From: Bacteroidia bacterium
Lineage (GTDB): Bacteria > Bacteroidota > Bacteroidia > UBA4408
Assembly: GCA_044238735.1 (NCBI GenBank)
Contig: JBIICS010000001.1
Span: 5,271-69,270, forward strand
DNA length: 64,000 nt
Reading direction: 5' to 3'
Each line of letters begins with the position of its first letter. Position 1 is the first letter of the stretch. The position numbers and the translations under genes are program-made. Of the stretch, positions 16,201 through 61,061 are shown one piece after another. Under the pieces are notes generated by a model, which worked only from the letters and a program-made list of their open reading frames with translations, was not told the DNA's origin and searched no databases.

Positions 16201-16368
16201 GCTTCGCCAGGTAGTTCTAATTCCAACGAAGGCATCATTTGTACTGGTAGTTCCCAATGTCCCAAGTGTGATTGTCGTCTGTCCCGCAACATCATTTAGA
16301 ACAAAAAAACACGCCAGCAACCAGATAAAAGGACTAATAAATTTGATATTGTAAATTTTGTATTTCAA
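13228..16368 (-). CDS. Giant secreted adhesin-like protein (1046 aa), Ser/Thr/Gly/Asn-rich, with Ig-like modules and a type-A T9SS C-terminal sorting domain.
   Basis: It has a signal peptide, an internal tandem duplication of ~100 aa and an Ig-like module ('YQWEVSTNGGSSW...YRCVVTN'). The C-terminal 'FYPNPFSNSIQLKN...GLYFFQV' is the Por_Secre_tail pattern. Confidence 0.8.
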   Translation of the reverse strand: MKYKIYNIKFISPFIWLLACFFVLNDVAGQTTITLGTLGTTSTNDAFVGIRTTWRSAKTQYLIRASEITAAGGSAGSLSQISLNISSASNTLSSFAIGIASTAQTDFTAGDMDAVTTVYSSTSESAFSSTGWRTINFSTLFSWDGTSNIIIQICWGRQDPNTSQGELNITSPGYTCTKYQRSDGGTGSGGGVGCGFTTVSARSTSRPVIRLTILPPCFNPTSAGSIGNAQSSNCGSFDPTTITSVSLPSGQNGTLEYKWQQSTTSSSSGFADIGSSNSTTYDPGVISQTTWYKRLARVNCQSNWSGAAESNVIEMTVSCINVNNGGTIGNAQSNCAAFDPTTISSLTLPSGTSCPYEYKWQQSTSNSGTGYSDILGATSATYDPGLLSQTTWFRRLAKANCTSSWASALSSNIIAMAIGIQIEGNPVSDTVYNQSGNASFGVLPVPLTGASYQWEVSTNGGSSWSNISNSALYSGTTTSTLQITNPTNTFNGYQYRCVVTNSCGSVTSGGAILFVLQQNIFSNTTSVACGGWGSASTTSECLTRTIAVSGLSLLNTSTNQLIQINVNIGSSSCLRDLSTYDFSLTSPTGTVYNFISNLGGASTTSTYANIKFRDHPALERVNQYSSPGAWFPYSIGYYAVETDNSFASTFNNQNPNGNWTFSMCEQDDGSGSGISFSSVELIFGPTIKTNDLTTSSANNECTGVACIGSDGFVTIGTNNGYASEDASTWPGTTTAGCSWNGANNNSAWFSFIASATTAYLTLSGIHSGINQIETQPIIFSRSGGCSSGTYSVPSGGCPEFNANFSPYLEAQADPYVNGISGNVQFNLSGLTIGQTYYLYIDGNGGAASTFYIEAPFGCQTCTTPLPVKFSNLSANCSSKGTSLSWSTESELNNDYFVIEKSTNGETFDAIGTIKGAGNSSSTLNYKYNDLGISSLGVTYYRIKQVDFDGTSAYSDLVYINCKEQLKPGFYPNPFSNSIQLKNINESNLTVNIFSSDSRLVKTLYNIDGNALISLDNLKTGLYFFQVVGSSNEILYNFHALKNSVDY

Positions 16369-16423
16369 GCTGTTTTTTGCTATATCACAAATTTGACGAT
16401 ACCATAATGAAAGAAAAAAGCAT

Positions 16424-16445
16424 AAATAGGGCGAATGCCCTATTT
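16424..16445. promoter_or_regulatory. Perfect 9-bp-stem hairpin AAATAGGGC-gaat-GCCCTATTT that contains a copy of the ATAAATAGGGC box, 56 bp upstream of the giant adhesin gene.
   Basis: The inverted repeat is visible directly in the sequence. It lies in the divergent promoter region between 16368 and 16954. Confidence 0.4.
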
Positions 16446-16953
16446 ATTTCTGAGAAAATTATTAGACCTTTGAGTGTTTAAAGGCCTCTCTGGTTGTTGT
16501 CTGCCTTAATTAAAGCGTGATTAAATTTTTGGTTCTACTATTAGTTAAAAAATGGCTTTTGGAAATACTTTGTGGTGTTTTTTTAGATTTACCTATCTAA
16601 CCTTTAAAATAGTATCCCCATTTATTACTAATTATAAATCCGATTTAAAACTAATGAAAAAAATATACTTTTGATTTATCTAAACCAATAAAAAATATTC
16701 AATTTATAATTTTGCAGTAAAGGTAAGTATTTACTAACTGTTTATACCTTTGTTTACCTTTTAAATACGTTCATATATCATACGAGATAATCTTTAATAT
16801 TTGACTATTAAATATGGCTATTTTAAATAAACATTTGATATTTTATAGACTATATGTGCTATAAATATAAATTAAAGAATAGGGCATATTTGCCCATATT
16901 AATTCGCTAAAAAAAAATAGGTCTGCTAAATTTGAATAAAAGCTATTAAACCA

Positions 16954-44287: not shown

Positions 44288-45019
44288 TTATTCAAAAACT
44301 TCTTCTAGCACCGTTAAAGATTTAATATTTCCGAGCGAGTGCAAATAAAGATCCAGGTACTTAACAAGCAAGCGAAGCAACTCTCTTCTTTCCGAATTAT
44401 CAATTATCAAACTATCTACATCCTCAAAGTAATCTAGCGAAAATAGCTTAAACAACCATTTAGATGTAATTACACTTATGGGATAATAAATGGGTTGTTG
44501 TTCTTGTAAATGTCCGGTTTCTATATTAAAATAGGGTTTAGAGCTGCTATACTCCTCGTCGGGGCAAATACCAAAATGTTTACACAGATGTGAAAGAAAG
44601 CCGAGATGAAAATTTTTTGGATTATTTAATGAACTATTTAAATAAAGTATGGCACTAAATGTAAAATCGAATAAAGAATCCTCTCCGTGATGATCGCGCA
44701 GACATGCCCCCAGAACTTCACCCAGAAAAAGTTTAATGTTATTCTTATAAATTTCAAAAGAGGGACTTATGTTGCTCTGGATATTTAACTTTATCTCCTT
44801 TAAGCTTACAAACCCATCGTTTGGCTTTATTTCGTATTCCAGATCGAGTAAAGTAAGGGGCATTAACAATCCGCTTTTTTTATTCTTACTTTTTCCGGAA
44901 GTACTTCGCTTGATAATGGCACTTACAACTCCGTTGTATTCGGTGAAAATTTTTAAGATTACAGCGTTATCGCTATATGGGATTTGTTTAAGCACTAGTC
45001 CCCTACCCTTAACAAACAT
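44288..45019 (-). CDS. recO: DNA repair protein RecO.
   Basis: N-terminal OB-fold 'GRGLVLKQIPYSDNAVILKIFTEYNGVVSAI'. Size 243 aa. Confidence 0.8.
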   Translation of the reverse strand: MFVKGRGLVLKQIPYSDNAVILKIFTEYNGVVSAIIKRSTSGKSKNKKSGLLMPLTLLDLEYEIKPNDGFVSLKEIKLNIQSNISPSFEIYKNNIKLFLGEVLGACLRDHHGEDSLFDFTFSAILYLNSSLNNPKNFHLGFLSHLCKHFGICPDEEYSSSKPYFNIETGHLQEQQPIYYPISVITSKWLFKLFSLDYFEDVDSLIIDNSERRELLRLLVKYLDLYLHSLGNIKSLTVLEEVFE

Positions 45020-47322
45020 TATTTAATAAATAATATCTTAGTTACATCGGTTTTTGCACCATCGGTTGAGGCTGAGAAAACCAAATAAACTCCCGAGCTA
45101 ACTTTATCGCCGTTAAACTTTCTTCCATTCCAAACAGCCTGTCCACCTAGTGCTTTAGTTTCATAAACTATATTTCCCTGTGTGTCTGTAATTTTAACTA
45201 TCGCATTTTCAACTAAATTTTTAATGGCTATAACTCCTGTGTAATCTGGTTTAACGGGATTAGGATAGGCATAAACACCATTAAAATTTTCTGAAGGTTC
45301 TGTAGCGTCGCTTTTGTAAGAGATAATACCCTTTTCGGTACCAAAAAAGACCTCGCCTGTTGTATGGTTAATACCAATGGACATTATAGAATTAGAGAGT
45401 ATAGGGCTGTTTTGAGTGTCAAAATGTTTTATTTCTGATGTGCCATCTTCCGAAACCAAAAATACTCCGGCGGAGCGGGTTCCAATCCATTTTCTATTGG
45501 CTTTATCAACAGCTATAGCCGTAACCTCCTCTGATTCCAACAAATACGAAACAACGCCGTTTTGCTCTATCTTTATTTGTTGAGCATCAAATACAGCGCC
45601 TGTAAAAACTCCGCCAGGATTATTAAAAACACTTATACCTTTGTCGGTTCCAATCCAAATGTTTCCATCTAAATCCTTTGCCATTGCATAAATGGTGGTT
45701 GTATGTAACCCTCCTTTTCCAACTGTTTCATTAATTATAGTTTGTTTATCATCCGAAACATCATCAATAGTTCCATTATCGTCATAAACAAATAATCCGG
45801 TTCCTCTTGGAAGCTGGACCCATTTTTTTCCAAAATCATCTATCAGTAAACGACCCGTAAAAACGGTGTTATTAACCCCATTTAAAGTGTATCCCTTCCA
45901 ACTTCCATCCGGCTTTAAAACATGTAAAGGTTTATTAGAAATAGTGTTTACCAACCAAAGATTTCCATTATTATCAAAAGACATCCCGCTTATACCACAA
46001 CGGAAATTTCGTTCCAATGTTGAATTGTTCTCGTTATAAATTTGAGTAGCCTTTTCGTCTTTAAATTCAATTAATCCATTAAAATATGAGCCCGCATACA
46101 TTTGCTTCTCGTCTTTAGGATTAACCACTACGGTTAAAACATCTAACATATCGGTAATTAATACATTATTTACTTTATTAATTACACTCCACTCCCCTTC
46201 CTTAAAAACGTAAATTTCGGGTGGTAAATAAAAATTACCCCAGGTATCATCTGTATTGCCCCTAGCTACATAAAGAGTTCCGTTACTTAATGCGCTATAG
46301 CTAGAACTTGATGTGTTGGTAGGACCATTAGGAACAATAAAAGAAAAATCGACTTTATTATTAGTTTGAACCAATCCAAAATTAAAATCGGCAATCCAAA
46401 GTTTACCGTCGTTATCCTGATAAACCTGATAAGGAGAAGCATTCCCAAAGTTATAACTACCAAAAGTTTGGCCAAGACTTCCGTTGGTATTTAAAAAGGA
46501 AACACCATACCATGTTATTCTGGCTAAATTTCCACCGATGTTCTGCAAACGCCTGGCATTTTGAACAACGGTAGAATTAAAATAATTCCACGACCCGTTT
46601 TGATATTGATACAAAGTGTCCTGATCTATTTTAGAACTAGTATAATTTGCATATAGAATATTATTTGCGGTAGTAATGGAATTTATATTTCCCTGAGGTA
46701 TTTGTGTTACAAGCGACCAGTATTCAAAATTCGCCAGGTTAGGAGCGTTTAAGGAGGCTTTGAATAAACCTTTCTCGGTTGCGGCAAAAATTTCACTATT
46801 TAATATCGCAACCTCTTTTACATTTATAAACGCGCCGTTTGTATTGATTAAATATGTGTCTTTTACTTCCTTTTTATTTAGATCCAGAACCACAATCCCA
46901 AAACCGGTTGAAACATAGGCTATATTGCCAAGCACCAAAACGTTATTAATAGTTTTATCGCCTGTTATATTTTTCCGCTTAATATCGGAGATGTTTTGTG
47001 TTTTTCCATCTTCCGAAATAATATCAATATTTCCGTTTTTGTATCCAACCAATAATTGTTTTCTGTCGGGGTCGGCAGCCAAAATATTAATATCCAAATC
47101 GCTAAGCCCGTTTATTTTAGATACCCTTTCTATAGAATTGTCCTGCTTATCGTAATAAAATATTCCGGTTGGTGTTGCGGCAAATATTTTTGAACCTAAA
47201 GGCGCTACCGAGATGCAATTATAATAAGGCAAATGAACCCTCCACTGACCTATTGCAATCTCCTGTCCGAGCAACAATTCACTTATAAACAGTACTATAA
47301 AAAGTATGGAGATTCTACTCAT
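45019..47322 (-). CDS. Two-beta-propeller (two-component-regulator propeller repeat) protein with a type-A T9SS C-terminal domain; PorZ-like.
   Basis: Signal peptide, repeated propeller blades and a C-terminal 'YAYPNPVKPDYTGVIAIKNL...GVYLVFSAS' domain. The architecture matches PorZ. Confidence 0.6.
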   Translation of the reverse strand: MSRISILFIVLFISELLLGQEIAIGQWRVHLPYYNCISVAPLGSKIFAATPTGIFYYDKQDNSIERVSKINGLSDLDINILAADPDRKQLLVGYKNGNIDIISEDGKTQNISDIKRKNITGDKTINNVLVLGNIAYVSTGFGIVVLDLNKKEVKDTYLINTNGAFINVKEVAILNSEIFAATEKGLFKASLNAPNLANFEYWSLVTQIPQGNINSITTANNILYANYTSSKIDQDTLYQYQNGSWNYFNSTVVQNARRLQNIGGNLARITWYGVSFLNTNGSLGQTFGSYNFGNASPYQVYQDNDGKLWIADFNFGLVQTNNKVDFSFIVPNGPTNTSSSSYSALSNGTLYVARGNTDDTWGNFYLPPEIYVFKEGEWSVINKVNNVLITDMLDVLTVVVNPKDEKQMYAGSYFNGLIEFKDEKATQIYNENNSTLERNFRCGISGMSFDNNGNLWLVNTISNKPLHVLKPDGSWKGYTLNGVNNTVFTGRLLIDDFGKKWVQLPRGTGLFVYDDNGTIDDVSDDKQTIINETVGKGGLHTTTIYAMAKDLDGNIWIGTDKGISVFNNPGGVFTGAVFDAQQIKIEQNGVVSYLLESEEVTAIAVDKANRKWIGTRSAGVFLVSEDGTSEIKHFDTQNSPILSNSIMSIGINHTTGEVFFGTEKGIISYKSDATEPSENFNGVYAYPNPVKPDYTGVIAIKNLVENAIVKITDTQGNIVYETKALGGQAVWNGRKFNGDKVSSGVYLVFSASTDGAKTDVTKILFIK

Positions 47323-47403
47323 GTTTGATGCTTTAAAAATAAGAAATATTGGACTAAGTAACCGAAAAACACCAGTTTATTATATTAACTTTGAAAAATT
47401 TTT

Positions 47404-47475
47404 GGTCTTGTAGTATAATGGATATTACGTGGGTCTCCGGAACCCAAGATTCAGGTTCGATTCCTGACAAGATCA
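47404..47475 (+). tRNA. tRNA-Arg (anticodon CCG).
   Basis: The cloverleaf was folded by hand. The acceptor stem GGTCTTG/CAAGATC has one G.U pair. The anticodon stem is TGGGT/ACCCA and the anticodon loop is CT-CCG-GA. The T-arm is TCAGG-TTCGATT-CCTGA, and the discriminator is A. Confidence 0.8.
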
Positions 47476-47583
47476 CAATAAAATACAGTCTGATTGACCT
47501 TTTGATACTCGAGTATCTTTATAAATTTTAGTTAGGTTTTTAAAACAAGAAACGTGAATCCTGATAATCGCTTTATTGTTTTA

Positions 47584-48303
47584 TTAGCGTTTTATTAGCT
47601 TGTTATTTATCATCTTTTCAAAAAAGGCATCTTTATACTCTTTGCCAATAGATATTTGTTGCCCATCCAGCATATTTATCATATTGCCCTCTACCTCCTT
47701 AATTTTTGTCATTGAAACAATATACGAACGATGAACCCTAATAAAAATATCTTGCGGTAATTGACTTTCGATGTTTTTTAAATTAACTAATGCTAAGAAA
47801 CGCTCCTTACCCGTATGAATCTTAACATAATCTTTTAATCCTTCAATAAACAATACATCGTTATAATTTAAGCGAACATATTTTTTATCGGTTTTTATAA
47901 TTAAATAATCTTTCCCTCCTTCTTTTCCTTGCTTAGAGGCCGCATTTTGATTAAGCCTGTTTACTAATTTATCAACCGTTTTTAAGAAACGATCGAGTGT
48001 AATGGGTTTTAAAAGATAATCGGCGGCATCTAACTCAAATCCTTTAACCGCATAATTACTGTATGCTGTGGTAAAAACAACAAGTGGTTTATTTTCGAGC
48101 GAAGCAACAAAGTCTAAGCCATTAATAGAAGGCATCTCTATGTCAATAAACATGATATCTACCTTTTTTTCTTTAATTAACGGAAGCGCATCAAGCGGGC
48201 TTGAAAAATCGCCTATACAATTAATTAAATCTATTTGGGTTATATAATCTTTTAAACCCTGGCGAGCCATTGGCTCATCGTCAATTACAATACAGTTAAA
48301 CAT
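47584..48303 (-). CDS. LytTR-family two-component response regulator.
   Basis: The receiver domain ('IVIDDEPMARQG...DIMFIDIEMP') is followed by a C-terminal LytTR DNA-binding domain. Confidence 0.85.
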   Translation of the reverse strand: MFNCIVIDDEPMARQGLKDYITQIDLINCIGDFSSPLDALPLIKEKKVDIMFIDIEMPSINGLDFVASLENKPLVVFTTAYSNYAVKGFELDAADYLLKPITLDRFLKTVDKLVNRLNQNAASKQGKEGGKDYLIIKTDKKYVRLNYNDVLFIEGLKDYVKIHTGKERFLALVNLKNIESQLPQDIFIRVHRSYIVSMTKIKEVEGNMINMLDGQQISIGKEYKDAFFEKMINNKLIKR

Positions 48304-48304
48304 A

Positions 48305-49351
48305 TTATTGTGTTATTTCTAATTGAACTTTAAACTTACCCAATAATTCTTCAATAATCAAGTGGTGTTGACCGGGATATAAAATATTTAGCCGCTTAAT
48401 AATGTTATTAATCCCAATGCCTCCTGTTTTAAGCTTTTGCTGGATTTCTTCTTCGTTTACGGAGTTCACTGCATAAAATAAAATAGAATTGGGTTTAAGC
48501 TCAAAACGGATATCAATATATACATCCCCAAAATTAGAGGGGCGTGCATGTTTAAAACAATTTTCCACAAAATCCATAAAAATAAAAGGCTCCACCATCA
48601 TGTCGCATTTACCATTTTCGGAAAACGTAATTATGATTTCATCACCATATCTCACTCGCTGTAAATCGAGATAATTTTTAGTGTAGTTAATCTCATCGTT
48701 AATGTTTACTTTTTCATCAGCAGCAACATACAATCGGTATCGTAAAAGTTCCGATAACTTTATTACCGATTCTTCTGCTTTATCCGGATTACGTTTAATA
48801 AGAAAGAAGATGTTGTTAAGTGTGTTAAACAAGAAATGTGGCTGCATTTGTGTTTTTAAAAACTTAAGCTCTGTTTGAAGTCTTTGATTATCCAGCTCCT
48901 TATAATATTTCTGAGAATTAGCCCAATCCTGAATAATCTGGAACGAGGAGATGGCTATTGTTTCGAACAAGCTCTTAAAAAACCAAGCAGAAAGTATGGT
49001 TAAGATACTGTACTCTTGGATATCGGTAGAGGGAATAATATAGATGTACGAGATGGATTTAATTAAGGCTCCTACAAAAACTATTAAAACAAGGAGTATG
49101 CTATACTGAACATATTGTTTTCTATATAAATATCGAGGAAGTAAAAAACTAATGTTAAAATACACCGTAAGCAGTGTAGAGGCTAGATAAATTAAACTAT
49201 CTATTAAAGAGGTGAATAACTGATCGAAACTATATCCGGCATCCCAAACCAGATATAAGTAAAATGTAATCCAAAAAAAGGTATGCACCCAAGGATTTCT
49301 CCTTACCTCGGGTATATACAAATCACGATCTCTTTCTAATAGGTTTGCCAT
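48305..49351 (-). CDS. Sensor histidine kinase (LytS/YehU type, membrane-bound).
   Basis: Five N-terminal transmembrane helices, the 'HFLFNTLNNI' H-box of His_kinase/LytS and a C-terminal HATPase domain. Confidence 0.8.
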   Translation of the reverse strand: MANLLERDRDLYIPEVRRNPWVHTFFWITFYLYLVWDAGYSFDQLFTSLIDSLIYLASTLLTVYFNISFLLPRYLYRKQYVQYSILLVLIVFVGALIKSISYIYIIPSTDIQEYSILTILSAWFFKSLFETIAISSFQIIQDWANSQKYYKELDNQRLQTELKFLKTQMQPHFLFNTLNNIFFLIKRNPDKAEESVIKLSELLRYRLYVAADEKVNINDEINYTKNYLDLQRVRYGDEIIITFSENGKCDMMVEPFIFMDFVENCFKHARPSNFGDVYIDIRFELKPNSILFYAVNSVNEEEIQQKLKTGGIGINNIIKRLNILYPGQHHLIIEELLGKFKVQLEITQ

Positions 49352-49376
49352 AAAAAAGGGGAGCCTTTAACTCCCC
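49352..49376 (-). terminator. Intrinsic terminator or attenuator between the M43 protease gene and the histidine kinase gene.
   Basis: GGGGAG-cctttaa-CTCCCC is followed on the minus strand by U6. The hairpin ends 1 nt before the histidine kinase start codon. Confidence 0.6.
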
Positions 49377-49396
49377 CTGAAATTAATTTAAATTTT

Positions 49397-51577
49397 CTAT
49401 TGTTCTATAATTAATCGCTTAACAGCACTTCCGTTTTCGGTTTCTATCTGAACAAAATAAACTCCGTTTTTTAAATCAAGCGTTTTAATTTCGGTATATG
49501 AATTAAAGTTTCCAGAATAGGTGTTAATAAGCTCACCCAAAACATTGTAAAGTCGAACTTCATTTATATTATTTCCGGAATTTGTATTCACATAAATTAA
49601 ATCTTTAGCAGGATTAGGGAAAATCGTTATACTTAAATTTTTGGAGATTATTTCTTTTGTACTAACGATATTGTCCACCGATAAATCATCAATAAATAGA
49701 TTGTTTTCGTATGCAGTTGTATTTTCAATTTTAATTATTGCCGTATTGCTTGATGCAAAGGGTGTAAGGTCTACTGTTTCCAACCTCCACTGACTTTGTT
49801 GTGTAGGGAAATAATCAGAGCCCTGAAATGTGGGTGTATTTGTAACAAGGGCAGTTCCCGCTTTTCTATAAACGGTTGTCCAGCTTAATCCACAATCTGT
49901 AGAGACGGTGATGTCTAGTGTGTCGCTGAAATTGGGGTTGGCCCCTGGGTTTGTCCATAATTTGTATGAAACATAGAAACTTAGGGTTGGATTTGGAAGA
50001 GAAGTTAAGTCCAGCTGAGGCAAGACCATTCTGTCTTTTTGATCATTATCATTATAGTTAGCATTATCGACATAAGCCGATGCTGTTCCGTTGTATTTTG
50101 CCTGAGTTGTTTTAGACCAGGTTTTACTATTATCAGGATTTTCCAATGTCCATCCTGTTGGCGGAAAGGCCCCTTCAAAGCCTTCAAAGAGGGGTAGCGA
50201 TAATCCGCCTGTGTTTACAGAGAATGAAACGCTTAAGCTGTCGTTGGTTGTATTTTCGTCTGCCACACCATTAGGGGTATTTGTGGAAAACAACAGGGTG
50301 TGATTTCCGCTATTAACCGAAACAGGAGATAAAGTAATCGATTCAGTAGCATATTGAGCTAAACTTCCCATCCAACTATAGGTTACGAGAGCGCCGCCAT
50401 CTAATTGATAATTTATATTAGCCGAAACCAAAGGATTTGAGCCAAAATTCTTTATGGTAACCTTAGGGCTTATGATGTTAGAACAAACAGACTGCCCGGG
50501 GTCGTTAACCGAAATTAAAGCTATATCATGATTGGTAAGTAAGGGGGGGTTACAAGCGGTTGAATTTTTTAAGACATTATAAGGGGGGTTGTTAATGATT
50601 GCTAACATTTCAGCTACCTGTCCCTGAGAAAACATATTCATGCAAGCGTCGTCTGTATAATCCATATAATTCATGTACATTGAACTTTGATCGGCGGCAT
50701 TACAACATCCCGTTGTTGAACTGGTACCCTGAGGAAAGGACGGACAACCGTAATTCTCGGCCTTCTGTTGAGGCGTGTCTGCTATACCATCATCCTGTGC
50801 GCATTGGGATTCATCGCCCCAAATGTGATACAAGCCAAAGCAATGACCAAACTCATGTGTACCGGTTCTTCCCAAATTATATGGCGCCGAACCCCCTACT
50901 CCCGTTGAACTATATTGCAAAACCAAGCCCCAGGTATTACTAATGGTATTGCTTGGAAATTCGGCATAACCTAAAATCCCACCCCCTATATCACAAATCC
51001 AAATATTTACATATTTGGTTACATCCCATGCATCAGAACCGCCTTGAGCAGTAAACTTAACCGCATCGGTAGTACCAAATGATGTTTTACTTGTTTGAAC
51101 CCTTACAATACCATTTGTTGGTACTCCGGTTGGGTCAACTTGTGCGGCGCAAAAATTAACACCGCCCATACCCGCTGCTCTCGACTTAAAAAGAGCCGGT
51201 ATGTTTGCGGTGTCAGCATTTGTTTTATTAAAATCGGCATTTAAAACATCCAATTGAGATAAAACGCGAGTATCGCTTATATTTTCAGCCGCGTTATTGT
51301 AAAGCACATGAAAGACTACCGGAATGTTTATTGTTGATCTCTCCTCTCCCGTTTTTCCGCTTGGGTGAAGCGCCAAAAAATCATTTATCCTTTTTCTATA
51401 CGAATCGATGTCTTCTTTATATCCAAGTCGGGTTTTTAATAAATATTCGTGATGATCCATTGTTCCGCAAACTCTCTTATCAGCATCAACAGCTATTTTA
51501 GCATGCTTTGCGGTTTGTGCATTAAGGCCACAAAAAGAGAGTGTAAACAATAATGCTCCATAAATTTTTTTCTTCAT
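49397..51577 (-). CDS. M43 (pappalysin-like) zinc metalloprotease, a paralogue of the gene at 31076..33127, with a type-A T9SS C-terminal domain.
   Basis: 'HEFGHCFGLYHIWGDE' metzincin motif. Signal peptide '..LNAQ'. C-terminal 'IFPNPAKDLIYVNT...GVYFVQI'. Confidence 0.85.
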   Translation of the reverse strand: MKKKIYGALLFTLSFCGLNAQTAKHAKIAVDADKRVCGTMDHHEYLLKTRLGYKEDIDSYRKRINDFLALHPSGKTGEERSTINIPVVFHVLYNNAAENISDTRVLSQLDVLNADFNKTNADTANIPALFKSRAAGMGGVNFCAAQVDPTGVPTNGIVRVQTSKTSFGTTDAVKFTAQGGSDAWDVTKYVNIWICDIGGGILGYAEFPSNTISNTWGLVLQYSSTGVGGSAPYNLGRTGTHEFGHCFGLYHIWGDESQCAQDDGIADTPQQKAENYGCPSFPQGTSSTTGCCNAADQSSMYMNYMDYTDDACMNMFSQGQVAEMLAIINNPPYNVLKNSTACNPPLLTNHDIALISVNDPGQSVCSNIISPKVTIKNFGSNPLVSANINYQLDGGALVTYSWMGSLAQYATESITLSPVSVNSGNHTLLFSTNTPNGVADENTTNDSLSVSFSVNTGGLSLPLFEGFEGAFPPTGWTLENPDNSKTWSKTTQAKYNGTASAYVDNANYNDNDQKDRMVLPQLDLTSLPNPTLSFYVSYKLWTNPGANPNFSDTLDITVSTDCGLSWTTVYRKAGTALVTNTPTFQGSDYFPTQQSQWRLETVDLTPFASSNTAIIKIENTTAYENNLFIDDLSVDNIVSTKEIISKNLSITIFPNPAKDLIYVNTNSGNNINEVRLYNVLGELINTYSGNFNSYTEIKTLDLKNGVYFVQIETENGSAVKRLIIEQ

Positions 51578-52218
51578 TTTTCTAGATTTTTTTCAAATAT
51601 CAGTTAGGAATAATGATCTGTTTAATAAAATATACTAATACAATTAGCGAGTATACCATCACAATATTCTAACAATGGAACCAAAAGTTTCGTATAAATG
51701 TTTGTATATCAAAACATTAATGCTTTAGGAAAATTTTATCACGCAATTTTTATGGGCCCTAAATTATAAGTTAGATGAAGTAAATCCTCTTATTCGATTT
51801 ATAGCAACCAAAATTGAAGCCAGGATGCATAACCAAAATAAAAAAATTATGTTTCCCGTGGAACATTAAATTCTTACTTAAGGCAAGCCAAATTTTAAAA
51901 GGAGAATTCTTTAAACTGAAGTTATCGTAAGTATAAAAAATTTCGAGCAATAGATTTACTGCTATTGAGAGCTCTTAATCTAGTTTATCTCATATAAGTA
52001 TTTATTATAAATAGGCAATTAAAGATAATCCAATCTTCAGAGAAAATATCCATGACTTTGAAAATCTATATTTTTGAAATTTTGTATCAATTATTTAAAA
52101 GTATATTTTTTTAAAATCCTAATGCGTTTTGCTATAATAATTAGCTAAAGAACGTGGTAAAAAGATTAAATAAAAAATAAATGGTTATAACCATCATGCA
52201 AGAAAAAGGACAGATAAA

Positions 52219-52232
52219 GTTTCACGTGAAAC
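52219..52232. promoter_or_regulatory. Perfect 14-bp palindrome GTTTCACGTGAAAC, copy 1; candidate transcription-factor operator.
   Basis: An exact self-complementary 14-mer. An identical copy lies 239 bp downstream. Confidence 0.5.
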
Positions 52233-52457
52233 AAGAAAATAGTTATAAAAAAAATTTCATTAGACTATGATAAGAGTAAGCCAAATTATGGCTATCTTTT
52301 AAATATAAATTTAAAAATTATTTAAACGTTTATTTTTGAGCCTAAAAAATTAATCCGAAAATAATGAAGTTCGAAGCTAAAAAGGATGCTGGGCAAGTTA
52401 GGTTTTTAACTATGAATATTTTATTATAGGTCTTAAAAAAACATTCTCATAAATTGT

Positions 52458-52471
52458 GTTTCACGTGAAAC
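52458..52471. promoter_or_regulatory. Perfect 14-bp palindrome GTTTCACGTGAAAC, copy 2.
   Basis: Identical to the copy at 52219-52232. Degenerate copies lie at 52655-52670 (GGTTCCACGTGAAAAA) and 51849-51866 (ATGTTTCCCGTGGAACAT). Confidence 0.5.
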
Positions 52472-52880
52472 TATGGAATCAATATATATGGTGAAACGAA
52501 TGTAAAGAATAATTAATGTGAAATAAACACAGATCGAGATTAAGATTCTTAGGGTCATCAATCAATAAGTAAATTAATCTAGATTTATAGACGGGTGTCT
52601 AAATACATAACGACTTTTGGATACGAAAAGAAATCAAGATAAAATACTTAAGCGGTTCCACGTGAAAAAATTATGATATCCGAAACAAGAATTAAATATA
52701 ATCGCGAAGCATTTCACGATAATATAATTGTACCAGGTTGTTTTAAATTAATATAAGGGTAAATAAACAAAGGCATCCGATCATTTATGGTTGAAGAGTA
52801 TTGGAGGTTATATAATTAAGGGCTCTTATTAAATTATAAAATAGAAGTTTTATAATTATAAATATTTATCCTAAATTAAA

Positions 52881-52888
52881 TACCTTTG
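52881..52888 (+). promoter_or_regulatory. Bacteroidetes sigma-A -7 box (TAnnTTTG) for mnmG.
   Basis: TACCTTTG ends 10 nt before the mnmG ATG, which would give a near-leaderless transcript. Confidence 0.35.
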
Positions 52889-52898
52889 CACGAACGCT

Positions 52899-54761
52899 AT
52901 GAAAACAAACTACGACATTATTGTTATTGGAGCGGGTCATGCCGGATGTGAAGCGGCAGCATCTGCGGCTAATTTAGGTTCATCCGTTCTGCTTCTTACC
53001 ATGAACATGCAAACCATTGGACAGATGAGTTGTAATCCGGCAATGGGAGGAATAGCAAAAGGACAAATTGTTAGAGAAATAGACGCTCTTGGTGGTTACA
53101 GCGCTATTGTTACCGATTGGTCGGCTATACAATTTAGAATGCTTAACCTGAGTAAGGGTGCAGCTATGTGGAGTCCTCGTGCACAAAACGATAGGATGCG
53201 ATTTGCAGAAAAATGGAGACTGATGCTAGAGCAAACACCAAACCTAGATTTTTGGCAGGATTCGGTAAAACAATTAATTATCGAAGATAACCACGTTAAA
53301 GGAGTGATAACACAAATGGGGCTGGAATTCAGGTCTAAAGCTGTTATATTAACCTCTGGCACTTTTGGAAATGGCCTAATTCATATAGGAGAAAAACAAT
53401 TTGGTGGTGGCAGAATGGGAGAGCCGGCGAGTTATGGAATAACGGAACAATTAGTATCATTAGGTTTTGAAGCCGGCAGAATGAAAACGGGAACTCCTCC
53501 AAGAATTGATGGTAGGAGTATAGATTATTCTAAAACAGAAGAACAGGGGGGCGACGAAAATCCTGGTAAATTTTCGTTTAGCGATACTCCCTATTTGGGA
53601 AAACAGATGTCCTGCTTTATAACTTATACGAATAAAGAGGTGCATGATATTTTAGCCGAGGGTTTTGAAAAATCGCCCATGTTTGCCGGTAGAATTCAGG
53701 GTAGGGGACCAAGATATTGCCCTTCCATTGAAGACAAGATTACACGCTTTGCGGAAAGGGAAAGACATCAGTTATTTATAGAACCCGAAGGATGGAAAAC
53801 GGTAGAAATATATCTTAATGGTTTTTCTTCGTCCCTTCCCGAAGATATTCAATACAAAGCCTTAACTAAAGTTCCCGGGCTCGAAAAAGTTAAACTGTTT
53901 AGACCGGGTTATGCAATTGAATACGACTATTTTCCGCCTACACAACTAAATCTAACTTTAGAAACAAAAATAATCAATAACCTCTATTTTGCCGGTCAAA
54001 TTAATGGAACTACCGGATATGAAGAGGCTGCATGCCAAGGTTTAATGGCAGGAATAAATGCCCATCATAAGATAAGCGGTAAAGCTCCATTTATTCTAAA
54101 ACGCTCTGAGGCTTATATTGGGGTTTTAATAGACGATTTGGTAACGAAAGGCACGGATGAACCTTACCGTATGTTTACATCCAGGGCAGAATACAGAATA
54201 CTTTTACGGCAAGATAATGCAGATATTAGGTTAACGCCTATTGGTTATGCTATTGGTTTAGCAAGTAAAGAAAGGTATGATGCGGTGTTATCTAAGATGA
54301 AATATAGCCACGAGATTATTAAATTCTTTAAAACAGAGAGTGTGGATCCTTCCGAAATTAATACTACTTTATCTGACTTAGGCTCATCCGACTTAATACA
54401 AAAAACAAAATTATTTAATGTGTTAAGCAGACCCCAAGTTAATATTGCCGATATTATAGATAGCGTTCCTCGTATAAAGAAATTTGTAGAAAATTATAAT
54501 TACGAGATTGTGGAGCAGGCTGAAATCTTAATGAAATATGAAGGCTATATTGCAAAGGAACAAGACATGGCCGAAAAAATGCAACGACTGGAGAATATAC
54601 GTTTACACGAGGACCTCGACTATGGTAAACTTTCCTCTTTAAGTGCAGAAGCCAGAGAGAAATTAGTTAAAATAAAACCTCAAACAATTGGTCAGGCTTC
54701 TAGAATTAGCGGTGTTACCCCTTCTGATATTTCAATTTTGATGATTTATTTGGGTCGATGA
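52899..54761 (+). CDS. mnmG: tRNA uridine-5-carboxymethylaminomethyl modification enzyme MnmG (GidA).
   Basis: FAD-binding 'YDIIVIGAGHAGCEAA' and a conserved 'GTTGYEEAA...QGL' core. Size 620 aa. Confidence 0.9.
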   Translation: MKTNYDIIVIGAGHAGCEAAASAANLGSSVLLLTMNMQTIGQMSCNPAMGGIAKGQIVREIDALGGYSAIVTDWSAIQFRMLNLSKGAAMWSPRAQNDRMRFAEKWRLMLEQTPNLDFWQDSVKQLIIEDNHVKGVITQMGLEFRSKAVILTSGTFGNGLIHIGEKQFGGGRMGEPASYGITEQLVSLGFEAGRMKTGTPPRIDGRSIDYSKTEEQGGDENPGKFSFSDTPYLGKQMSCFITYTNKEVHDILAEGFEKSPMFAGRIQGRGPRYCPSIEDKITRFAERERHQLFIEPEGWKTVEIYLNGFSSSLPEDIQYKALTKVPGLEKVKLFRPGYAIEYDYFPPTQLNLTLETKIINNLYFAGQINGTTGYEEAACQGLMAGINAHHKISGKAPFILKRSEAYIGVLIDDLVTKGTDEPYRMFTSRAEYRILLRQDNADIRLTPIGYAIGLASKERYDAVLSKMKYSHEIIKFFKTESVDPSEINTTLSDLGSSDLIQKTKLFNVLSRPQVNIADIIDSVPRIKKFVENYNYEIVEQAEILMKYEGYIAKEQDMAEKMQRLENIRLHEDLDYGKLSSLSAEAREKLVKIKPQTIGQASRISGVTPSDISILMIYLGR

Positions 54762-54900
54762 AAAACCCGATGTTGATTTAATAAGTTTTATCTAAATTAA
54801 GAAATTAAAGTGGTATAGGCCGGCTATTATTAACTGTAAAGAATTAAAATTATTTTTTTTATTTCGTTTTAAAAATTTATTATTAAGAATACATACAAAA

Positions 54901-55269
54901 GTGAAGGGCCTACAATCCATTCTTTTACTTATACTTTCCAATGCATTTATGACGCTGGCTTGGTACGGACACTTAAGATTTAATAAAATTAAATGGTTTG
55001 AGTCGTGGGGGATTCTGGGCATAATTATAGTTAGCTGGGGAATTGCCCTATTTGAATATATGTTGCAAGTTCCCGCTAACCGATTAGGCTTTAAGGAAAC
55101 AGGCGGACCCTTTAATCTTATTCAATTAAAAATTATACAAGAGGTTATTTCCATTATTGTTTTTGTTGTTTTTTCAGTAACATTTTTCAGAAACGAGGAG
55201 TTTAGATGGAATCATGTATTTGCTTTTGCATTAATCATTGTAGCCGTTTATCTGGTTTTTAAAAAATAA
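54901..55269 (+). CDS. DMT-superfamily small membrane protein (DUF486-like).
   Basis: A 122-aa protein with four transmembrane helices, 'LSNAFMTLAWYGHLRF'. Possible GTG start. Confidence 0.6.
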   Translation: MKGLQSILLLILSNAFMTLAWYGHLRFNKIKWFESWGILGIIIVSWGIALFEYMLQVPANRLGFKETGGPFNLIQLKIIQEVISIIVFVVFSVTFFRNEEFRWNHVFAFALIIVAVYLVFKK

Positions 55270-55332
55270 AGGCGCGTCATCTTGAAAAAAATTATTCATT
55301 AGCTCCATTTGATATAGTAAAAAAACGAAAGC

Positions 55333-56415
55333 GTGAAACCCTTCTTTAACTTAAATATTAATTATACAAAACGTATTTATGGTTTAGACATCCTGCGTTC
55401 TGTTGCTATATTAATAGTAATGCTGGGGCATTGCGGACCTTTATTAAACGAGACCGACTTTCAAGATTTTCCTTATATAAGTTTATTAGACGGGGTGGAA
55501 CTATTCTTTGTATTAAGCGGGTATTTAATAGGGGGCATATTAATTAAAGAAATAGATAATGGCGATTTTAAACTCAAACAATTACTAAACTTTTGGAAAC
55601 GACGGTGGTTTAGAACTTTACCTAATTATTACTTAATATTAATCATTAATATCCTTTTAGTCTCGTATAATATTATACCGGGTAAACCCGAGAATATTTC
55701 GGCAGATTTCTTCTTATTTCTGCAAAACTTCAGAAAACCCTTTACTGATTTTTTTTGGGAATCGTGGAGTCTTTGTGTGGAAGAATGGTTTTATATCTTC
55801 TTTGGATTGGGGATTTTAATTTCCATGAAATTATTTAAACCCATAACCGCTTATGTCGTTTGTACGATTTTATTGATATTACTTCCTCTATTTTACAGAA
55901 TATCAATTTCGTATCAAGACGTTAATGAATTTTGGTGGGATGTAATCTTTAGAAAAACGGTGCTGTGCCGGTTGGACGCCATCGGCTATGGCGCACTTGC
56001 GGCCTATTTACATTTACGATTTCCTTACTACTGGATAAAGTATAAAATTTTCTTACTGTTAATTTCAATGCCATTGTTGATTTACTGGCCTTATTTAGAT
56101 ATTAATAAAAACGGGTGGTTTGCCAAAACGCTCTCGTTTAGCGTAATACCCCTTTTTTGTTCTTTACTTTTACCTTTTTTTAGTGATATAAAACAAGGCA
56201 AGGGAAAGGTGTTTATGTTTTTTACAATCACAAGCGTTTTAAGCTATAGCTTATATTTAATAAACCTTTCGCTTGTTGAACAAATAATTGAGGTTCACTT
56301 AAAAATTAATGGTATTTTGAGTTATGGATTATTTTGGCTAACCTGCTATTTGGTGGCCTTTCTATTATATACGCTTTACGAAAAACCCCTTATGGATTTA
56401 AGGGATAAAACTTAA
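55333..56415 (+). CDS. Acyltransferase family 3 membrane O-acyltransferase.
   Basis: 'GLDILRSVAILIVMLGHCG' N-terminal signature with ten or more transmembrane helices. Confidence 0.7.
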   Translation: MKPFFNLNINYTKRIYGLDILRSVAILIVMLGHCGPLLNETDFQDFPYISLLDGVELFFVLSGYLIGGILIKEIDNGDFKLKQLLNFWKRRWFRTLPNYYLILIINILLVSYNIIPGKPENISADFFLFLQNFRKPFTDFFWESWSLCVEEWFYIFFGLGILISMKLFKPITAYVVCTILLILLPLFYRISISYQDVNEFWWDVIFRKTVLCRLDAIGYGALAAYLHLRFPYYWIKYKIFLLLISMPLLIYWPYLDINKNGWFAKTLSFSVIPLFCSLLLPFFSDIKQGKGKVFMFFTITSVLSYSLYLINLSLVEQIIEVHLKINGILSYGLFWLTCYLVAFLLYTLYEKPLMDLRDKT

Positions 56416-56422
56416 CACTGTT

Positions 56423-57052
56423 TTGACTATTAAAATAAATTCGGTAAACGAGTACCTGGTTGACGGGTGTGGAAGATGCAAACATCACGCAACACCACAA
56501 TGCAAGGTTAATTTATGGCGCAAAGAACTTGTAATGTTAAGATCTATAGCTTTAGAGAATGGTTTTAAAGAAGTTATTAAATGGGGAATGCCCTGTTATA
56601 CCTATAATGGAGCAAATGTTTTTATTATAAGTGCTTTTAAAGAATATTGTTCTATAAACTTTTTTAAAGGATCGTTATTAAACGATGCTCAACAATTATT
56701 GATAAAGCCGGGGGAAAACACACAAGGGGGAAGACAATTACGTTTTACCAATTTAGCCGATATTAAAAATCTGGAAAAAGACATAGTATCTTTTTTAAAG
56801 GAAGCTAAAAACATAGAGGAAAGTGGTAAAAAAATGGAAAAGAAAAATTTAGATGAACTTCCAATTCCTTTAGAATTAGAAATAAGATTTAAAAAAGATA
56901 CTGTTTTTAAAAAAGCGTTTAAAGCGTTAACTCCGGGTAGGCAAAGAGGTTATCTGATATTTTTCAGCGCTGCCAAACAAAGCAATACGCGAATATCCAG
57001 GATAGAAAAAAATATCGATAATATATTAAAAGGTAAGGGCCTTAACGAGTAA
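56423..57052 (+). CDS. DUF1801 / YdeI-OmpD-associated family protein.
   Basis: N-terminal DUF1801-like region 'VDGCGRCKHH...KWGMPCYTYNG'. C-terminal YdeI/OmdA-like 'FKALTPGRQRGYLIFFSAAKQ'. Confidence 0.55.
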   Translation: MTIKINSVNEYLVDGCGRCKHHATPQCKVNLWRKELVMLRSIALENGFKEVIKWGMPCYTYNGANVFIISAFKEYCSINFFKGSLLNDAQQLLIKPGENTQGGRQLRFTNLADIKNLEKDIVSFLKEAKNIEESGKKMEKKNLDELPIPLELEIRFKKDTVFKKAFKALTPGRQRGYLIFFSAAKQSNTRISRIEKNIDNILKGKGLNE

Positions 57053-57056
57053 ATAT

Positions 57057-58397
57057 CTATTTATTCTTTGCTCGCCACTGTTCATTAAAGGAAGTGCTGG
57101 CAACACTTGGAAATTCTCTGTTATTCCCCCACGGTTTTTTAAAAAACTGTCTTAACATAAAGTTTTTTAATTTACTTCCACCTTTTTCCATATTACTTCT
57201 TTTTAAAACAGCACCCTTGTAAAAAAATATAGCAATATTATCGCTTCGAGGAACCAGACGCTTAAAAACATTATCGCGTCTATTGTATAATAGCATTTTA
57301 TTAAAATCAATAGCAACCGGACAATGTTCCTTTAAATTGGCGTCTAACGGATTTAAAAAAGATTCGTAGGCATGTTCGCTTTCATCTTGATAATGCTGAT
57401 TAATTACATGTCCAATAACACCTTTATACAAGCCTTGCTGAGCGTTTGCGCTGTACTTATATAAAGGGTCGTGGAGTTGGCATGATCCACACTTAATACA
57501 CGTAGCGGCCAATCTTAAATCGCTGTTTAATAAAAGTTCACTTCTCCCATTATCTAATAATATTATTATTAGTTCGCTTTCACCTTGTGGTGAACTTATT
57601 ATTGTATTATAGTTTGCATTAAATTGACCGGTGGCAAATGAAGAGAGTAAGGGCAGCATTAAATCAAGGTCGTTTGTGCTTGCTAAAACTTTATCGATAC
57701 CGCAAACCACAATGTGTGTATTGGCATTGCTTAAACCTCTTAAGATGTTTCCCTCATTTTCTGTAAAAACAATACCGCCAACATCAGCCAAAAGGAAAGT
57801 AGCGCCCGAAATAAAAACCTCCATTTCCTTTGTTTTTTCAGTTATTTCGGAGGCAATAAAGGCGCTTGCCTGATGTAAGTCGCTAAAATCTTTATTTATT
57901 AAAGAATTAATTTCTTCGAAACTCTTGTCAAGTAATGGTAAAATATTTTGAAACGAATTAGTCTTTGCTTCACTACACAAGTAGTCTCCCGTATCTGTCT
58001 CAACAACATTAATTTTAAAATCGTTTAAGAGTTCTCGCAATCCTATCTCATTTAAAGTGGTGGATTTAGATTTAACAACCGTATTAACGTTTTTAGACTT
58101 TAATATATCTAGAATCTCCTGATTTGCTTCATCGGAATCGCTGGCCCACAATACCTTAATATTTCTTTTTATCATCTCACCCTCTAAATTGATAAGATGA
58201 GTATCTAAATATTCTATAGTTTTATGACGAATATTTGCTGCTCTTTTGCGAGCCAAATTAAGATTGGCATAATTACTTTTAGCATCTTGATATGCCTCCT
58301 CATAATTTACTAAATTATTTGAAACATTAGCAATGGAGGCTTCGTTTTTTAAACAATTGTTTAATGCTTTAACATATTGATCCTGTTTAGAGCTCAT
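57057..58397 (-). CDS. LUD-domain iron-sulfur protein (LutB/LldF-like).
   Basis: A ~450-aa protein with the cluster motif 'CIKCGSCQ' and a LUD-type alpha/beta region. The assignment is from overall similarity only. Confidence 0.45.
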   Translation of the reverse strand: MSSKQDQYVKALNNCLKNEASIANVSNNLVNYEEAYQDAKSNYANLNLARKRAANIRHKTIEYLDTHLINLEGEMIKRNIKVLWASDSDEANQEILDILKSKNVNTVVKSKSTTLNEIGLRELLNDFKINVVETDTGDYLCSEAKTNSFQNILPLLDKSFEEINSLINKDFSDLHQASAFIASEITEKTKEMEVFISGATFLLADVGGIVFTENEGNILRGLSNANTHIVVCGIDKVLASTNDLDLMLPLLSSFATGQFNANYNTIISSPQGESELIIILLDNGRSELLLNSDLRLAATCIKCGSCQLHDPLYKYSANAQQGLYKGVIGHVINQHYQDESEHAYESFLNPLDANLKEHCPVAIDFNKMLLYNRRDNVFKRLVPRSDNIAIFFYKGAVLKRSNMEKGGSKLKNFMLRQFFKKPWGNNREFPSVASTSFNEQWRAKNK

Positions 58398-58398
58398 A

Positions 58399-60009
58399 CT
58401 AACGGTTGCTTTTAAAATCGTTTACCTTATCCACTTTAATGCGTTCGTTGCGGTTTGCAATATCCCAGGCTGTATAAAAAATAAGTCGGGTAATTTTTTC
58501 CATTTTGTTAAAATCAATTTTATCAACCGTATCTGTTGGTTTATGATAATCGGCATGTACACCCGTAAAATAAAAAATAACGGGTATGTTATTCTTAGCA
58601 AAATTATAATGATCGCTGCGATAATAAAATCGATTGGGATCTGACGGTTTGTTATAAGTATAATCCAATAAAATATTTACCGACTTTTTATTAGCCTCTT
58701 CATTAATAAAATGCAAATCGGAGCTTAATTTATCTGAACCTATTATATAAACATAGTTTGGATTGTTTTCGTGTTCTTTATCTAATCTTCCTATCATATC
58801 AATATTAAGATCGCATACCGTTTGGTTTAATGGAACTATTGGATTTTTAGAATAGTATTCGCTACCCAATAAGCCCTTTTCTTCACCAGAAAAATTGATA
58901 AATAACACATTGCGTTTGGGACCATTACCATTTTTGTATGACTCATAAAAAGCTTGTGCTAATTCCAAAACAGCAACTGTACCGGAGCCGTCATCATCTG
59001 CGCCATAATAAATTTTACCATCCTGTATTCCTAAATGATCGTAATGCGCAGAGAAAACAACATATTCATCCTTAAACTGCGATCCCGGTATAAAGGCCAT
59101 AACATTTTGAGCGGTTAACTTTTGTTGCTCTCGTTCAATTTTAATTTTTAAGTTTCCTTTTACATTAGTGTTTTTAAGCGTTTTTTCTTCGCTAAAATCT
59201 GATTTAATTTTTTTAAGCGATTTACCTAATAATTTCTCTGCCATATCCTTACTAATATAGAAATAAGGTATTCGTCCCTTTAATTTATTATCTTCTCCAT
59301 CCAATTTTGTTAAAGGTTTTTCTATAGAGTGCTTATAGGTTTTAATGTTTTGATTTATGTTTTCATCAACAATTAATAACGCGTTTAGGCCCTGGTTTTT
59401 AGCCTCCTCTAATTTTGCTCTAACGCTTTCGCTCCAGCGTGATGATTTATCACTTTTACTAATAACGTACTGACCATTATCATCTTTTGGCTCTCCGTCT
59501 AGTATTATAGCTACTTTATATCTTAAATTTAAATTTTTATAATCGTTATAAGAGCCTTCGTTTATTCCGTAGCCAACAAAATAAACCTCACTGGCAATTA
59601 ATTCCTGTGCATCAAAACGTGGAAAAAAGAAATAATCTTCTAAAAATTTAAACTCTTTATTATCGAAAGAAATGGAAGATTCTTTAGCTTTTTCCTGTGA
59701 TATTGGATAATGCTGAAAATAGTCGATTGTAAATCCTTTTAAACCAATATTATTATAATATTGAGCCAGATAAGTTGCTGCCAATCTCTGGCCTTCTTCG
59801 CTTGTTTCCCTTCCGGCATATTTATCAGAAGCTAATTCTGTTAGATGATTTTTTAAATCACTTGCCCTTATTTCTTTTGCAAACTTGTTTATAACCGAAG
59901 TGTCTTGCAACTGAGCATAAGATGAACCAAAAAATAAAACAAATACCGGTACAAGTAGTTGATTTAAATTAATAATCTTAAAAATTGAATTTGATTTTTT
60001 TAAGTTCAC
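58399..60009 (-). CDS. Secreted M28-family zinc aminopeptidase with a PA domain.
   Basis: Signal peptide '..SYAQ'. Zinc ligands 'SAHYDHLG', 'GADDDGSG' and 'SGEEKGLLGSEY'. Confidence 0.8.
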   Translation of the reverse strand: MNLKKSNSIFKIINLNQLLVPVFVLFFGSSYAQLQDTSVINKFAKEIRASDLKNHLTELASDKYAGRETSEEGQRLAATYLAQYYNNIGLKGFTIDYFQHYPISQEKAKESSISFDNKEFKFLEDYFFFPRFDAQELIASEVYFVGYGINEGSYNDYKNLNLRYKVAIILDGEPKDDNGQYVISKSDKSSRWSESVRAKLEEAKNQGLNALLIVDENINQNIKTYKHSIEKPLTKLDGEDNKLKGRIPYFYISKDMAEKLLGKSLKKIKSDFSEEKTLKNTNVKGNLKIKIEREQQKLTAQNVMAFIPGSQFKDEYVVFSAHYDHLGIQDGKIYYGADDDGSGTVAVLELAQAFYESYKNGNGPKRNVLFINFSGEEKGLLGSEYYSKNPIVPLNQTVCDLNIDMIGRLDKEHENNPNYVYIIGSDKLSSDLHFINEEANKKSVNILLDYTYNKPSDPNRFYYRSDHYNFAKNNIPVIFYFTGVHADYHKPTDTVDKIDFNKMEKITRLIFYTAWDIANRNERIKVDKVNDFKSNR

Positions 60010-60065
60010 TAAATAATAATATAGATAAAGTACTTTATGTTGTTATGTATTTTAATAAATCTAAA

Positions 60066-60497
60066 TTAAATACAGCTTATTTTATTTACCCTCGTTTGAT
60101 GTCTTCCTCCTTCGAATTCTGTATTTAAAAAGACATCAACCATTTCTTTACATTCATCAATAGTTGTATATCGAGCGGGCAATGTAATTATGTTGGCGTC
60201 ATTATGAAGCCTGGCTAAGGCTGCTATTTCTTTTTTCCAACATAAAGCACTTCTAATACCATTATGTTTATTAGCTGTAATATTTACACCATTTCCACTT
60301 CCACAAATTAAAATTCCATACTGAGTTTCATTTTGTTCAACGCTTAATGCAACTTTATGAGCGAAATCAGGATAATCTACACTTTGAGAGGAGAAACACC
60401 CCATATCTTTAATTCCAAAACCCTTTTGCATTAAAAAAAATTTAATTTGTTCTTTATAATCATAACCAGCATGATCACAACCTATACTTATATTCAT
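60066..60497 (-). CDS. rpiB: Ribose-5-phosphate isomerase B.
   Basis: 'ISIGCDHAGYDYK...ILICGSGNGV' is the RpiB/LacAB signature. Size 143 aa. Confidence 0.85.
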   Translation of the reverse strand: MNISIGCDHAGYDYKEQIKFFLMQKGFGIKDMGCFSSQSVDYPDFAHKVALSVEQNETQYGILICGSGNGVNITANKHNGIRSALCWKKEIAALARLHNDANIITLPARYTTIDECKEMVDVFLNTEFEGGRHQTRVNKISCI

Positions 60498-61061
60498 GAT
60501 ACTTTTTTTATTTTATTAATATAGTCAATTAAGTGCACTAAATATTTGTACTTATTAATTCCTAAATTTAATAATAAAGTAGTTATTAACTTTCAAAGCT
60601 TTTTTAATAAAATAAACATTTGTTTATCAATATATTAATATAAACATAAATAACAATTATAGTGTTAATAGTCGTTAATTGTATACAATAAGTGTTTAAG
60701 AAAAAATTATAATAAAATTTTAATTATCCATAGTATTATTTAATTGGTATTTTAAACTTATAAAACAAACAATTTTTTTAAATTATATAACACAATAATT
60801 AACACTATGGCACACAAATAAACAGTATAATCTAATAACTTTATTTTGTTAACATACTAATACTAACAAATGTTAATATAAACTCTAGTTTTTAGTTATA
60901 TCAAGCTTTTAATAAGAAATTTGCTGTTAATTAAATGTTATGTAAATAACAAAAGTCAAATATCAAAACATTTTTAAATAAAAAAACTTACAGTACTAAC
61001 ACACTAATAAATAATACATAATATTTAAATAATTAAATAAATTAATATATAATTTAGTTTT

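Follow-up and report, generated by a model that had tools for sequence, protein, structure and literature searches.

Probable chromosomal parS sites cluster in the gene-free region preceding mnmG in an uncultured lineage of Bacteroidota

Here, we provide evidence that the palindromes upstream of mnmG in this Bacteroidota genome are very probably chromosomal parS sites, the bacterial centromere, arranged as a cluster of four within a single gene-free spacer and predicted from their sequence to be bound by ParB (Spo0J). The initial annotation of the window (the whole 64-kb stretch of DNA analyzed here) had left the cognate protein of these palindromes unnamed after checking Fur, CRP/FNR, Rex, cre, PurR, and LexA; ParB was omitted from that list, and the motif is the consensus parS TGTTTCACGTGAAACA. 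The feature is of a kind already known, an ordinary partition site, with no need for the operator of a novel regulator. What holds of the dimeric operator array first proposed is that the sites are probably recognized by a dimeric helix-turn-helix protein, but the regulon operators do not hold, since the motif is the parS of ParB.

Scanning the 64-kb window recovered two exact copies of the 14-bp palindrome GTTTCACGTGAAAC (52219-52232 and 52458-52471) and two degenerate copies, GTTTCCCGTGGAAC (51851-51864) and GTTCCACGTGAAAA (52655-52668), all as originally annotated, with no further copy at ≤2 mismatches anywhere in the window. Extending the two perfect palindromes by one base on each side gives 15/16 identity to TGTTTCACGTGAAACA, and it is on this basis that we identify the motif as parS (Table 1). 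Mismatches to the 16-mer are 2, 1, 1, and 3 in coordinate order, placing the sites at 52218, 52457, and 51850 within the limit of about two mismatches to TGTTNCACGTGAAACA or TGTTTCACGTGAAACA applied to parS, with the site at 52654 one beyond it. At ≤3 mismatches, the 16-mer matched the window five times against 0.26 expected, a count reached in 0 of 100 shuffles. Four of these matches are confined to 820 bp of the spacer, and all credible copies in the window thus form one cluster; the fifth, at 62496, has three mismatches and no CACGTG core and is apparently a chance match. The half-site GTTYCAC/GTGRAAC is likewise enriched about 30-fold, with seven copies in the 1.32-kb spacer compared with 0.18 per kb in the rest of the window. 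Successive sites are 368, 239, and 197 bp apart and lie 1,048, 680, 441, and 244 bp upstream of mnmG. Within the 64 kb, the sites are clustered and their flanking sequences are unrelated, in keeping with the original view that they are not a dispersed repeat element.

Table 1. Sites in the spacer upstream of mnmG and the genes on either side, in window coordinates.
Feature	Position	Strand	Remarks
Peptidase_M43 + T9SS sorting domain protein gene	49397-51577	-	Domain search
Gene-free AT-rich spacer with probable parS cluster	51578-52898	.	1,321 bp; 25.7% GC vs 35.1% in the window
Probable degenerate parS site TGTTTCCCGTGGAACA	51850-51865	.	2 mismatches to consensus parS
Probable parS site AGTTTCACGTGAAACA	52218-52233	.	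15/16 to consensus; perfect 14-bp palindromic core
Probable parS site TGTTTCACGTGAAACT	52457-52472	.	15/16 to consensus; perfect 14-bp core
Putative orphan parS half-site GTGAAAC	52491-52497	.	Half-site scan; 20 bp from second perfect site
Probable degenerate parS site GGTTCCACGTGAAAAA	52654-52669	.	3 mismatches to TGTTTCACGTGAAACA
mnmG (gidA)	52899-54761	+	GIDA/MnmG PF01134, E 2.6e-162

The two degenerate sites of the four may bind weakly, judging from their departures from the consensus. One half of the site at 51850 is consensus-like (TGTTCCAC), and the other, on the left (TGTTTCCC), has A7 replaced by C, a base typical of Noc-binding sites (NBS); its G at position 12 is a common variant among the Bacteroidota mnmG loci compared here, and its CCCGTG variant also adjoins mnmG in loci L010 and L032. 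We regard it as probably a weak ParB site. At 52654, one of the three mismatches (T5 to C) is a common natural variant, leaving two mismatches to the Bacillus subtilis form with N at position 5, and the same GTTCCACGTGAAAA adjoins mnmG in L012. The orphan half-site at 52491 could represent either a decayed site or a half-site of low affinity. Reportedly, the chromosomal parS of ParB/Spo0J was described by Lin and Grossman in 1998 and Livny et al. in 2007, with the form TGTTNCACGTGAAACA in B. subtilis and the consensus TGTTTCACGTGAAACA across bacteria. The methods of a ParABS report (PMC10197239) quote the latter unchanged as their parS consensus, after Livny et al. 2007, and another study writes of the "consensus parS site TGTTTCAC-GTGAAACA" (bioRxiv 10.1101/724823). 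Among the matches listed in a full-text literature search for the 16-mer TGTTTCACGTGAAACA, nearly all concerned ParB/parS topics. For whole-genome scans, we give the parS pattern as TGTTNCACGTGRAACA with ≤2 mismatches.

The spacer is ORF-free and AT-rich, as initially annotated, with no ORF of at least 60 aa (the longest are 59 and 42 aa), and its flanking genes are those first named, a minus-strand M43 protease gene and plus-strand mnmG, in agreement with domain matches. A 13-kb stretch including the spacer recurs at 100% identity in independent metagenome assemblies, on which gene callers placed no gene within the spacer. We presume that the spacer is a zone of ParB loading and spreading; it also accommodates the promoter regions of both divergent genes, that for the M43 protease and mnmG. 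The sequence TAnnTTTG, which we take to be the Bacteroidota-type -7 promoter element, occurs only once upstream of mnmG, as TACCTTTG at 52881-52888, 18 bp before the ATG, and likely marks the mnmG promoter. The gene context of the window is that of chromosomal housekeeping (mnmG, pyk, pyc, asnB, nadA, pdxJ, rbfA, and recO). The window is also rich in components and cargo of type IX secretion, or T9SS (10419-19872, 31076-33127, 45019-47322, and 49397-51577), namely a PorZ homologue, a Por_Secre_tail protein of 1,046 aa, two paralogous M43 metalloproteases that carry Por_Secre_tail, and two SprB-repeat/CHU_C proteins with lamin-tail domains.

To place the cluster in the context of the phylum, we compared 160 Bacteroidota mnmG loci, 80 from species-representative genomes and 80 from metagenomes, with MnmG identities of 63-75%; scans of genomes and metagenomes yielded no MnmG relative closer than 75%, and a look-up of the exact protein returned identical DNA alone. 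In 133 of the 160 loci, the strict core GTTYCACGTGRAAC lay no more than 300 bp from the start or the stop codon of mnmG, and the conservation at orthologous loci in relatives that the initial annotation had put forward as a check is thus present. Upstream of the start, the core lay within 300 bp in 111 of 150 loci with enough flank, and downstream of the stop in 67 of 151. Altogether, 258 of 295 core sites fell in these mnmG-flanking zones, or about 7% of the 1.37 Mb searched, with four sites inside mnmG and 33 elsewhere, where base composition alone would lead us to expect an estimated 0.01 core sites or so in the entire 1.37 Mb. The base before the core was T in 205 of the 295 sites and the base after it A in 221, flanks that complete the 16-bp parS. 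The window therefore is, on sequence grounds, one more case of a phylum-wide mnmG-parS pattern, and the literature library searched contained nothing specific on parS beside mnmG in Bacteroidota.

The layout of the sites varies among relatives. Most Bacteroidota loci have just one to three sites close to the mnmG ORF, typically a pair spaced by 33-47 bp, no farther than about 130 bp from the start codon and ending 13-30 bp before the ATG, or, alternatively or additionally, one site 5-25 bp after the stop codon. Compared to these, the window has an atypical, stretched arrangement, with sites 244-1,048 bp from mnmG and 197-368 bp apart. Other multisite arrays by mnmG comprise four sites each in L044, L130, and L133 and five over 2.7 kb in L027. 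The most extreme among the 160 loci is that of Terrimonas ferruginea (L054, 3057-3965), where nine parS cores with irregular spacing of 47-172 bp are found in a gene-free spacer of 1,021 bp that precedes mnmG. The nearest relatives from metagenomes, L085 (5905-6782) and L086 (6020-7225), have three to four sites downstream of mnmG; these surround a gene for a class-I SAM methyltransferase (Methyltransf_23) and lie partly within its long ORF. This gene often follows mnmG in Bacteroidota and has no homologue beside mnmG in this window.

Gene order around mnmG differs between the window and its relatives. The order RecO-PorZ-...-mnmG-...-LUD-...-rpiB is common to the window (44288-60497) and its closest relative L001 (695-9131), with the mnmG block and its upstream parS inverted in the window relative to their neighbors and with a LytTR/His_kinase pair, M43 protease, DMT_6, acyltransferase, DUF1801, and M28 genes inserted as extras; in L085, mnmG directly follows nadA. 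Across the window, L001, and L085, parS moves together with mnmG through these rearrangements. That palindromic sites flanking mnmG mediate the inversion is pure speculation.

Several of the related loci place parS close to a probable origin of replication. About 25 of the 160 contain clusters of canonical TTATCCACA DnaA boxes a few kilobases from mnmG, with up to 20 boxes at ≤1 mismatch in L045 (7582-8587) and 12-13 in L074 (8481-8816) and L091 (7868-8208). With two exceptions, the clusters are found about 2-3.6 kb past the mnmG stop (3.9-5.5 kb from the start), apart from the parS sites; in L030, L035, L006, L022, and L116, the distance from the mnmG start is about +4.2 to +4.5 kb, and the exceptions, L075 and L076, have them upstream of mnmG. 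Such clusters are likely oriC regions one or two genes away from mnmG, and their positions suggest that, in those relatives, mnmG and its parS sites lie near the origin, where parS would be expected. Because canonical clusters coexist separately with the parS palindromes, the DnaA of this phylum seems to rely on ordinary boxes.

No canonical DnaA-box cluster occurs anywhere in the 64 kb of the window, and GC skew over that length follows mainly gene orientation and is not decisive for an origin. A 564-bp intergenic region at 60498-61061, between divergent rpiB (-) and nadA (+), has only 15.4% GC, a reversal in sign of both GC and AT skew around it, and one near-canonical DnaA box (TTATCCATA, 60724). 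DnaA-box clusters are found directly beside rpiB in the Weeksellaceae relatives L014, L026, and L053, and the rpiB-adjacent spacer is also very AT-rich in L085, L086, and L001. This region is a possible candidate for oriC or an unwinding element, about 8 kb from the parS cluster. The densest group of DnaA-box-like 9-mers in the window, TAATCCACA, TTATCGACA, and TTTTCCACA with one mismatch each within ≤400 bp, falls inside the M43 protease coding sequence (49886-50290) and is probably due to chance.

Could the palindromes instead be operators of some dimeric transcription factor that coregulates the divergent mnmG and M43 protease genes, as the initial annotation had it? Their symmetry, their location in a divergent intergenic region, and their conservation beside mnmG would all fit such an array, as would the pair of sites 13-80 bp before the mnmG start in many relatives, a possible promoter position. 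However, the motif is identical to parS, for which the binding protein is already known, and in 67 of 151 loci a site follows the mnmG stop codon by no more than about 50-100 bp, where an operator would not be placed. In the window, the nearest site lies about 230 bp upstream of the sole TAnnTTTG motif, TACCTTTG, a location that is likewise unsuited to a promoter operator, and the M43 protease is not a conserved neighbor of mnmG; nor do the fetched loci give any sign of a regulon, with only 33 of 295 sites found elsewhere, some of them (L027 and L054) in arrays extending from mnmG. We consider an operator array very unlikely. Similar odds apply to the idea that the palindromes are lineage-specific DnaA boxes, each composed of two overlapping TGTTTCACG nonamers, in a spacer that functions as oriC. 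Such a spacer would be AT-rich and gene-free, next to gidA/mnmG and between divergent genes, as this one is, and there is a precedent in the Ori-Finder paper (PMC2275245), which concerns the same palindrome by gidA in Bradyrhizobiaceae. In contrast, relatives within the phylum have their canonical TTATCCACA clusters elsewhere, a few kilobases from mnmG and alongside parS, and the spacer holds no TTATCCACA box at ≤1 mismatch and only two at ≤2 mismatches against 6.2 expected; where such boxes are missing, AT richness is uninformative as to an unwinding element. With DnaA boxes depleted and parS as the sole repeated motif in the spacer, we rejected oriC as the main explanation and judge it highly improbable.

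Least probable of all, to the point of being hardly credible, is that a small RNA, a gene for a small protein, or a mobile-element remnant is concealed in the spacer and includes the palindromes. The length of the spacer, 1.3 kb, is unusual among intergenic regions of this window, and among sliding 120-nt folds on both strands, the minus strand at 52218-52377 folds somewhat better than shuffled sequence (z about -2.9). Yet this value is near the extreme expected among 60 windows and is unremarkable, no Rfam match was found over 51300-53100 even at E ≤1 (the whole window has a single match at the gathering threshold, a tRNA at 47404), and promoter-like and terminator-like matches in the spacer occur at chance level only; the small RNA raised as a possibility in the initial annotation is thus unsupported. 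Coding sequence fares no better, given that no gene was called in the spacer on the independent assemblies. Compared by tblastx and sensitive blastn with the 160 related loci and with the remainder of the window, the spacer gave matches at the parS sites alone, which led us to reject a pseudogene or coding remnant, and a mobile-element origin was rejected on the lack of any similarity to plasmid and phage collections. No repeated motif other than parS was found in the spacer, and the flanks of the repeats are unrelated.

We therefore return to the palindromes as parS sites. Taking their sequence identity, clustering, and conservation as directly observed, and assuming a cognate ParB for this organism, the established ParABS pathway would run as follows. 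A ParB (Spo0J) dimer, encoded elsewhere in the genome, would recognize each palindrome through its helix-turn-helix domains, and CTP binding would shut the ParB clamp, which would then leave parS and slide onto the DNA on either side. Through successive rounds of loading at the four sites, together with ParB-ParB bridging, a single partition complex would form over the spacer and its flanks, and a ParA ATPase would move this complex and origin-proximal DNA into daughter cells. Should mnmG or the M43 protease gene be transcribed differently as a result, this would be a by-product of ParB occupancy and not its primary function. The DNA looping suggested in the initial annotation would be loosely right, as ParB bridges and condenses DNA around parS.

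No ParB, ParA, or ParBc domain was detected among all window ORFs of at least 120 aa, no GERRxRA box occurs in six-frame translations of the window and the 160 loci, and parA, parB, and dnaA are absent both from the 64-kb window and from the 160 related loci (±4 kb of mnmG). ParABS homologues and clustered origin parS have been reported in Bacteroidota, with B. caecimuris and M. intestinale among the 12 genomes of one ParABS report (PMC10197239). That report gives known condensins as not found in its two Bacteroidetes genomes (PMC10197239), and a step in which ParB loads SMC should therefore not be assumed here.

With these findings, a motif that stands out in this uncultured lineage receives a precise known function, that of a chromosome partition site, and the false lead of a novel regulator and its regulon is removed. 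They also have a practical use. dnaA is a poor origin marker in Bacteroidota. The mnmG-parS linkage found in this phylum offers a marker for the centromere, and probably for the origin region, in Bacteroidota metagenome-assembled genomes, and the case flags a recurring annotation trap, as the same palindrome beside gidA was once proposed as a DnaA box. A more ambitious reading, which we put forward as a conjecture and think unlikely, is that parS in Bacteroidota has been selected for physical coupling to mnmG itself, beyond any coupling to the origin region, given sites 13-80 bp ahead of its start codon and 5-25 bp past its stop in most of the 160 loci. Such coupling would have been kept through rearrangements, including the inversion of the mnmG block seen here, with ParB loading and sliding controlling mnmG transcription, or mnmG transcription shaping the ParB domain, and would have been expanded in this lineage into a 1.3-kb gene-free centromere. 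If true, it would tie chromosome segregation to tRNA modification and translation capacity. Our evidence neither supports nor opposes a regulatory link between mnmG and ParB.

Compared to known systems, the cluster shares with the parS of ParB/Spo0J its 16-bp palindrome (15/16 in two sites), low copy number within the window, noncoding clustered arrangement, gidA/mnmG neighborhood, and phylum-wide conservation of the motif. Unlike in many Proteobacteria and Firmicutes, where the order is gidAB-parAB, parAB does not lie beside mnmG here or in the fetched Bacteroidota loci. NBS sites are dispersed across the chromosome and are not clustered. They are related 16-bp palindromes (TATTTCCCGGGAAATA) bound by a ParB paralogue, Noc, and the left half of the site at 51850, TGTTTCCC, shares their C7, whereas the perfect sites have the parS-specific G2 and A7 and a core of CACGTG, not CCCGGG. 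NBS differs from parS at position 7 (C), and Noc is limited to Firmicutes (bioRxiv 10.1101/724823); we rejected a Noc-binding site on the CACGTG core with G2 and on the Bacteroidota host, as indicated by its T9SS domains and by closest mnmG loci from Bacteroidia. The palindrome from which the Ori-Finder study of 2008 derived its "species-specific DnaA box TGTTTCACG" in Bradyrhizobiaceae, TGTTTCACGTGAAACA beside gidA, is identical to that considered here (PMC2275245). That proposal was computational, whereas the role of the palindrome as a ParB site is experimentally established, and because TGTTTCACGTGAAACA is the consensus parS, the study likely took ParB sites for DnaA boxes. Clustered parS arrays are known, for example, as a several-site cluster in Caulobacter and as four origin-proximal sites in Pseudomonas aeruginosa (PMC13438810). 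Like these, the cluster upstream of mnmG has several sites of graded quality in a short stretch, on which one ParB complex would be expected to form, but its four sites are set in a dedicated 1.3-kb gene-free, AT-rich spacer.
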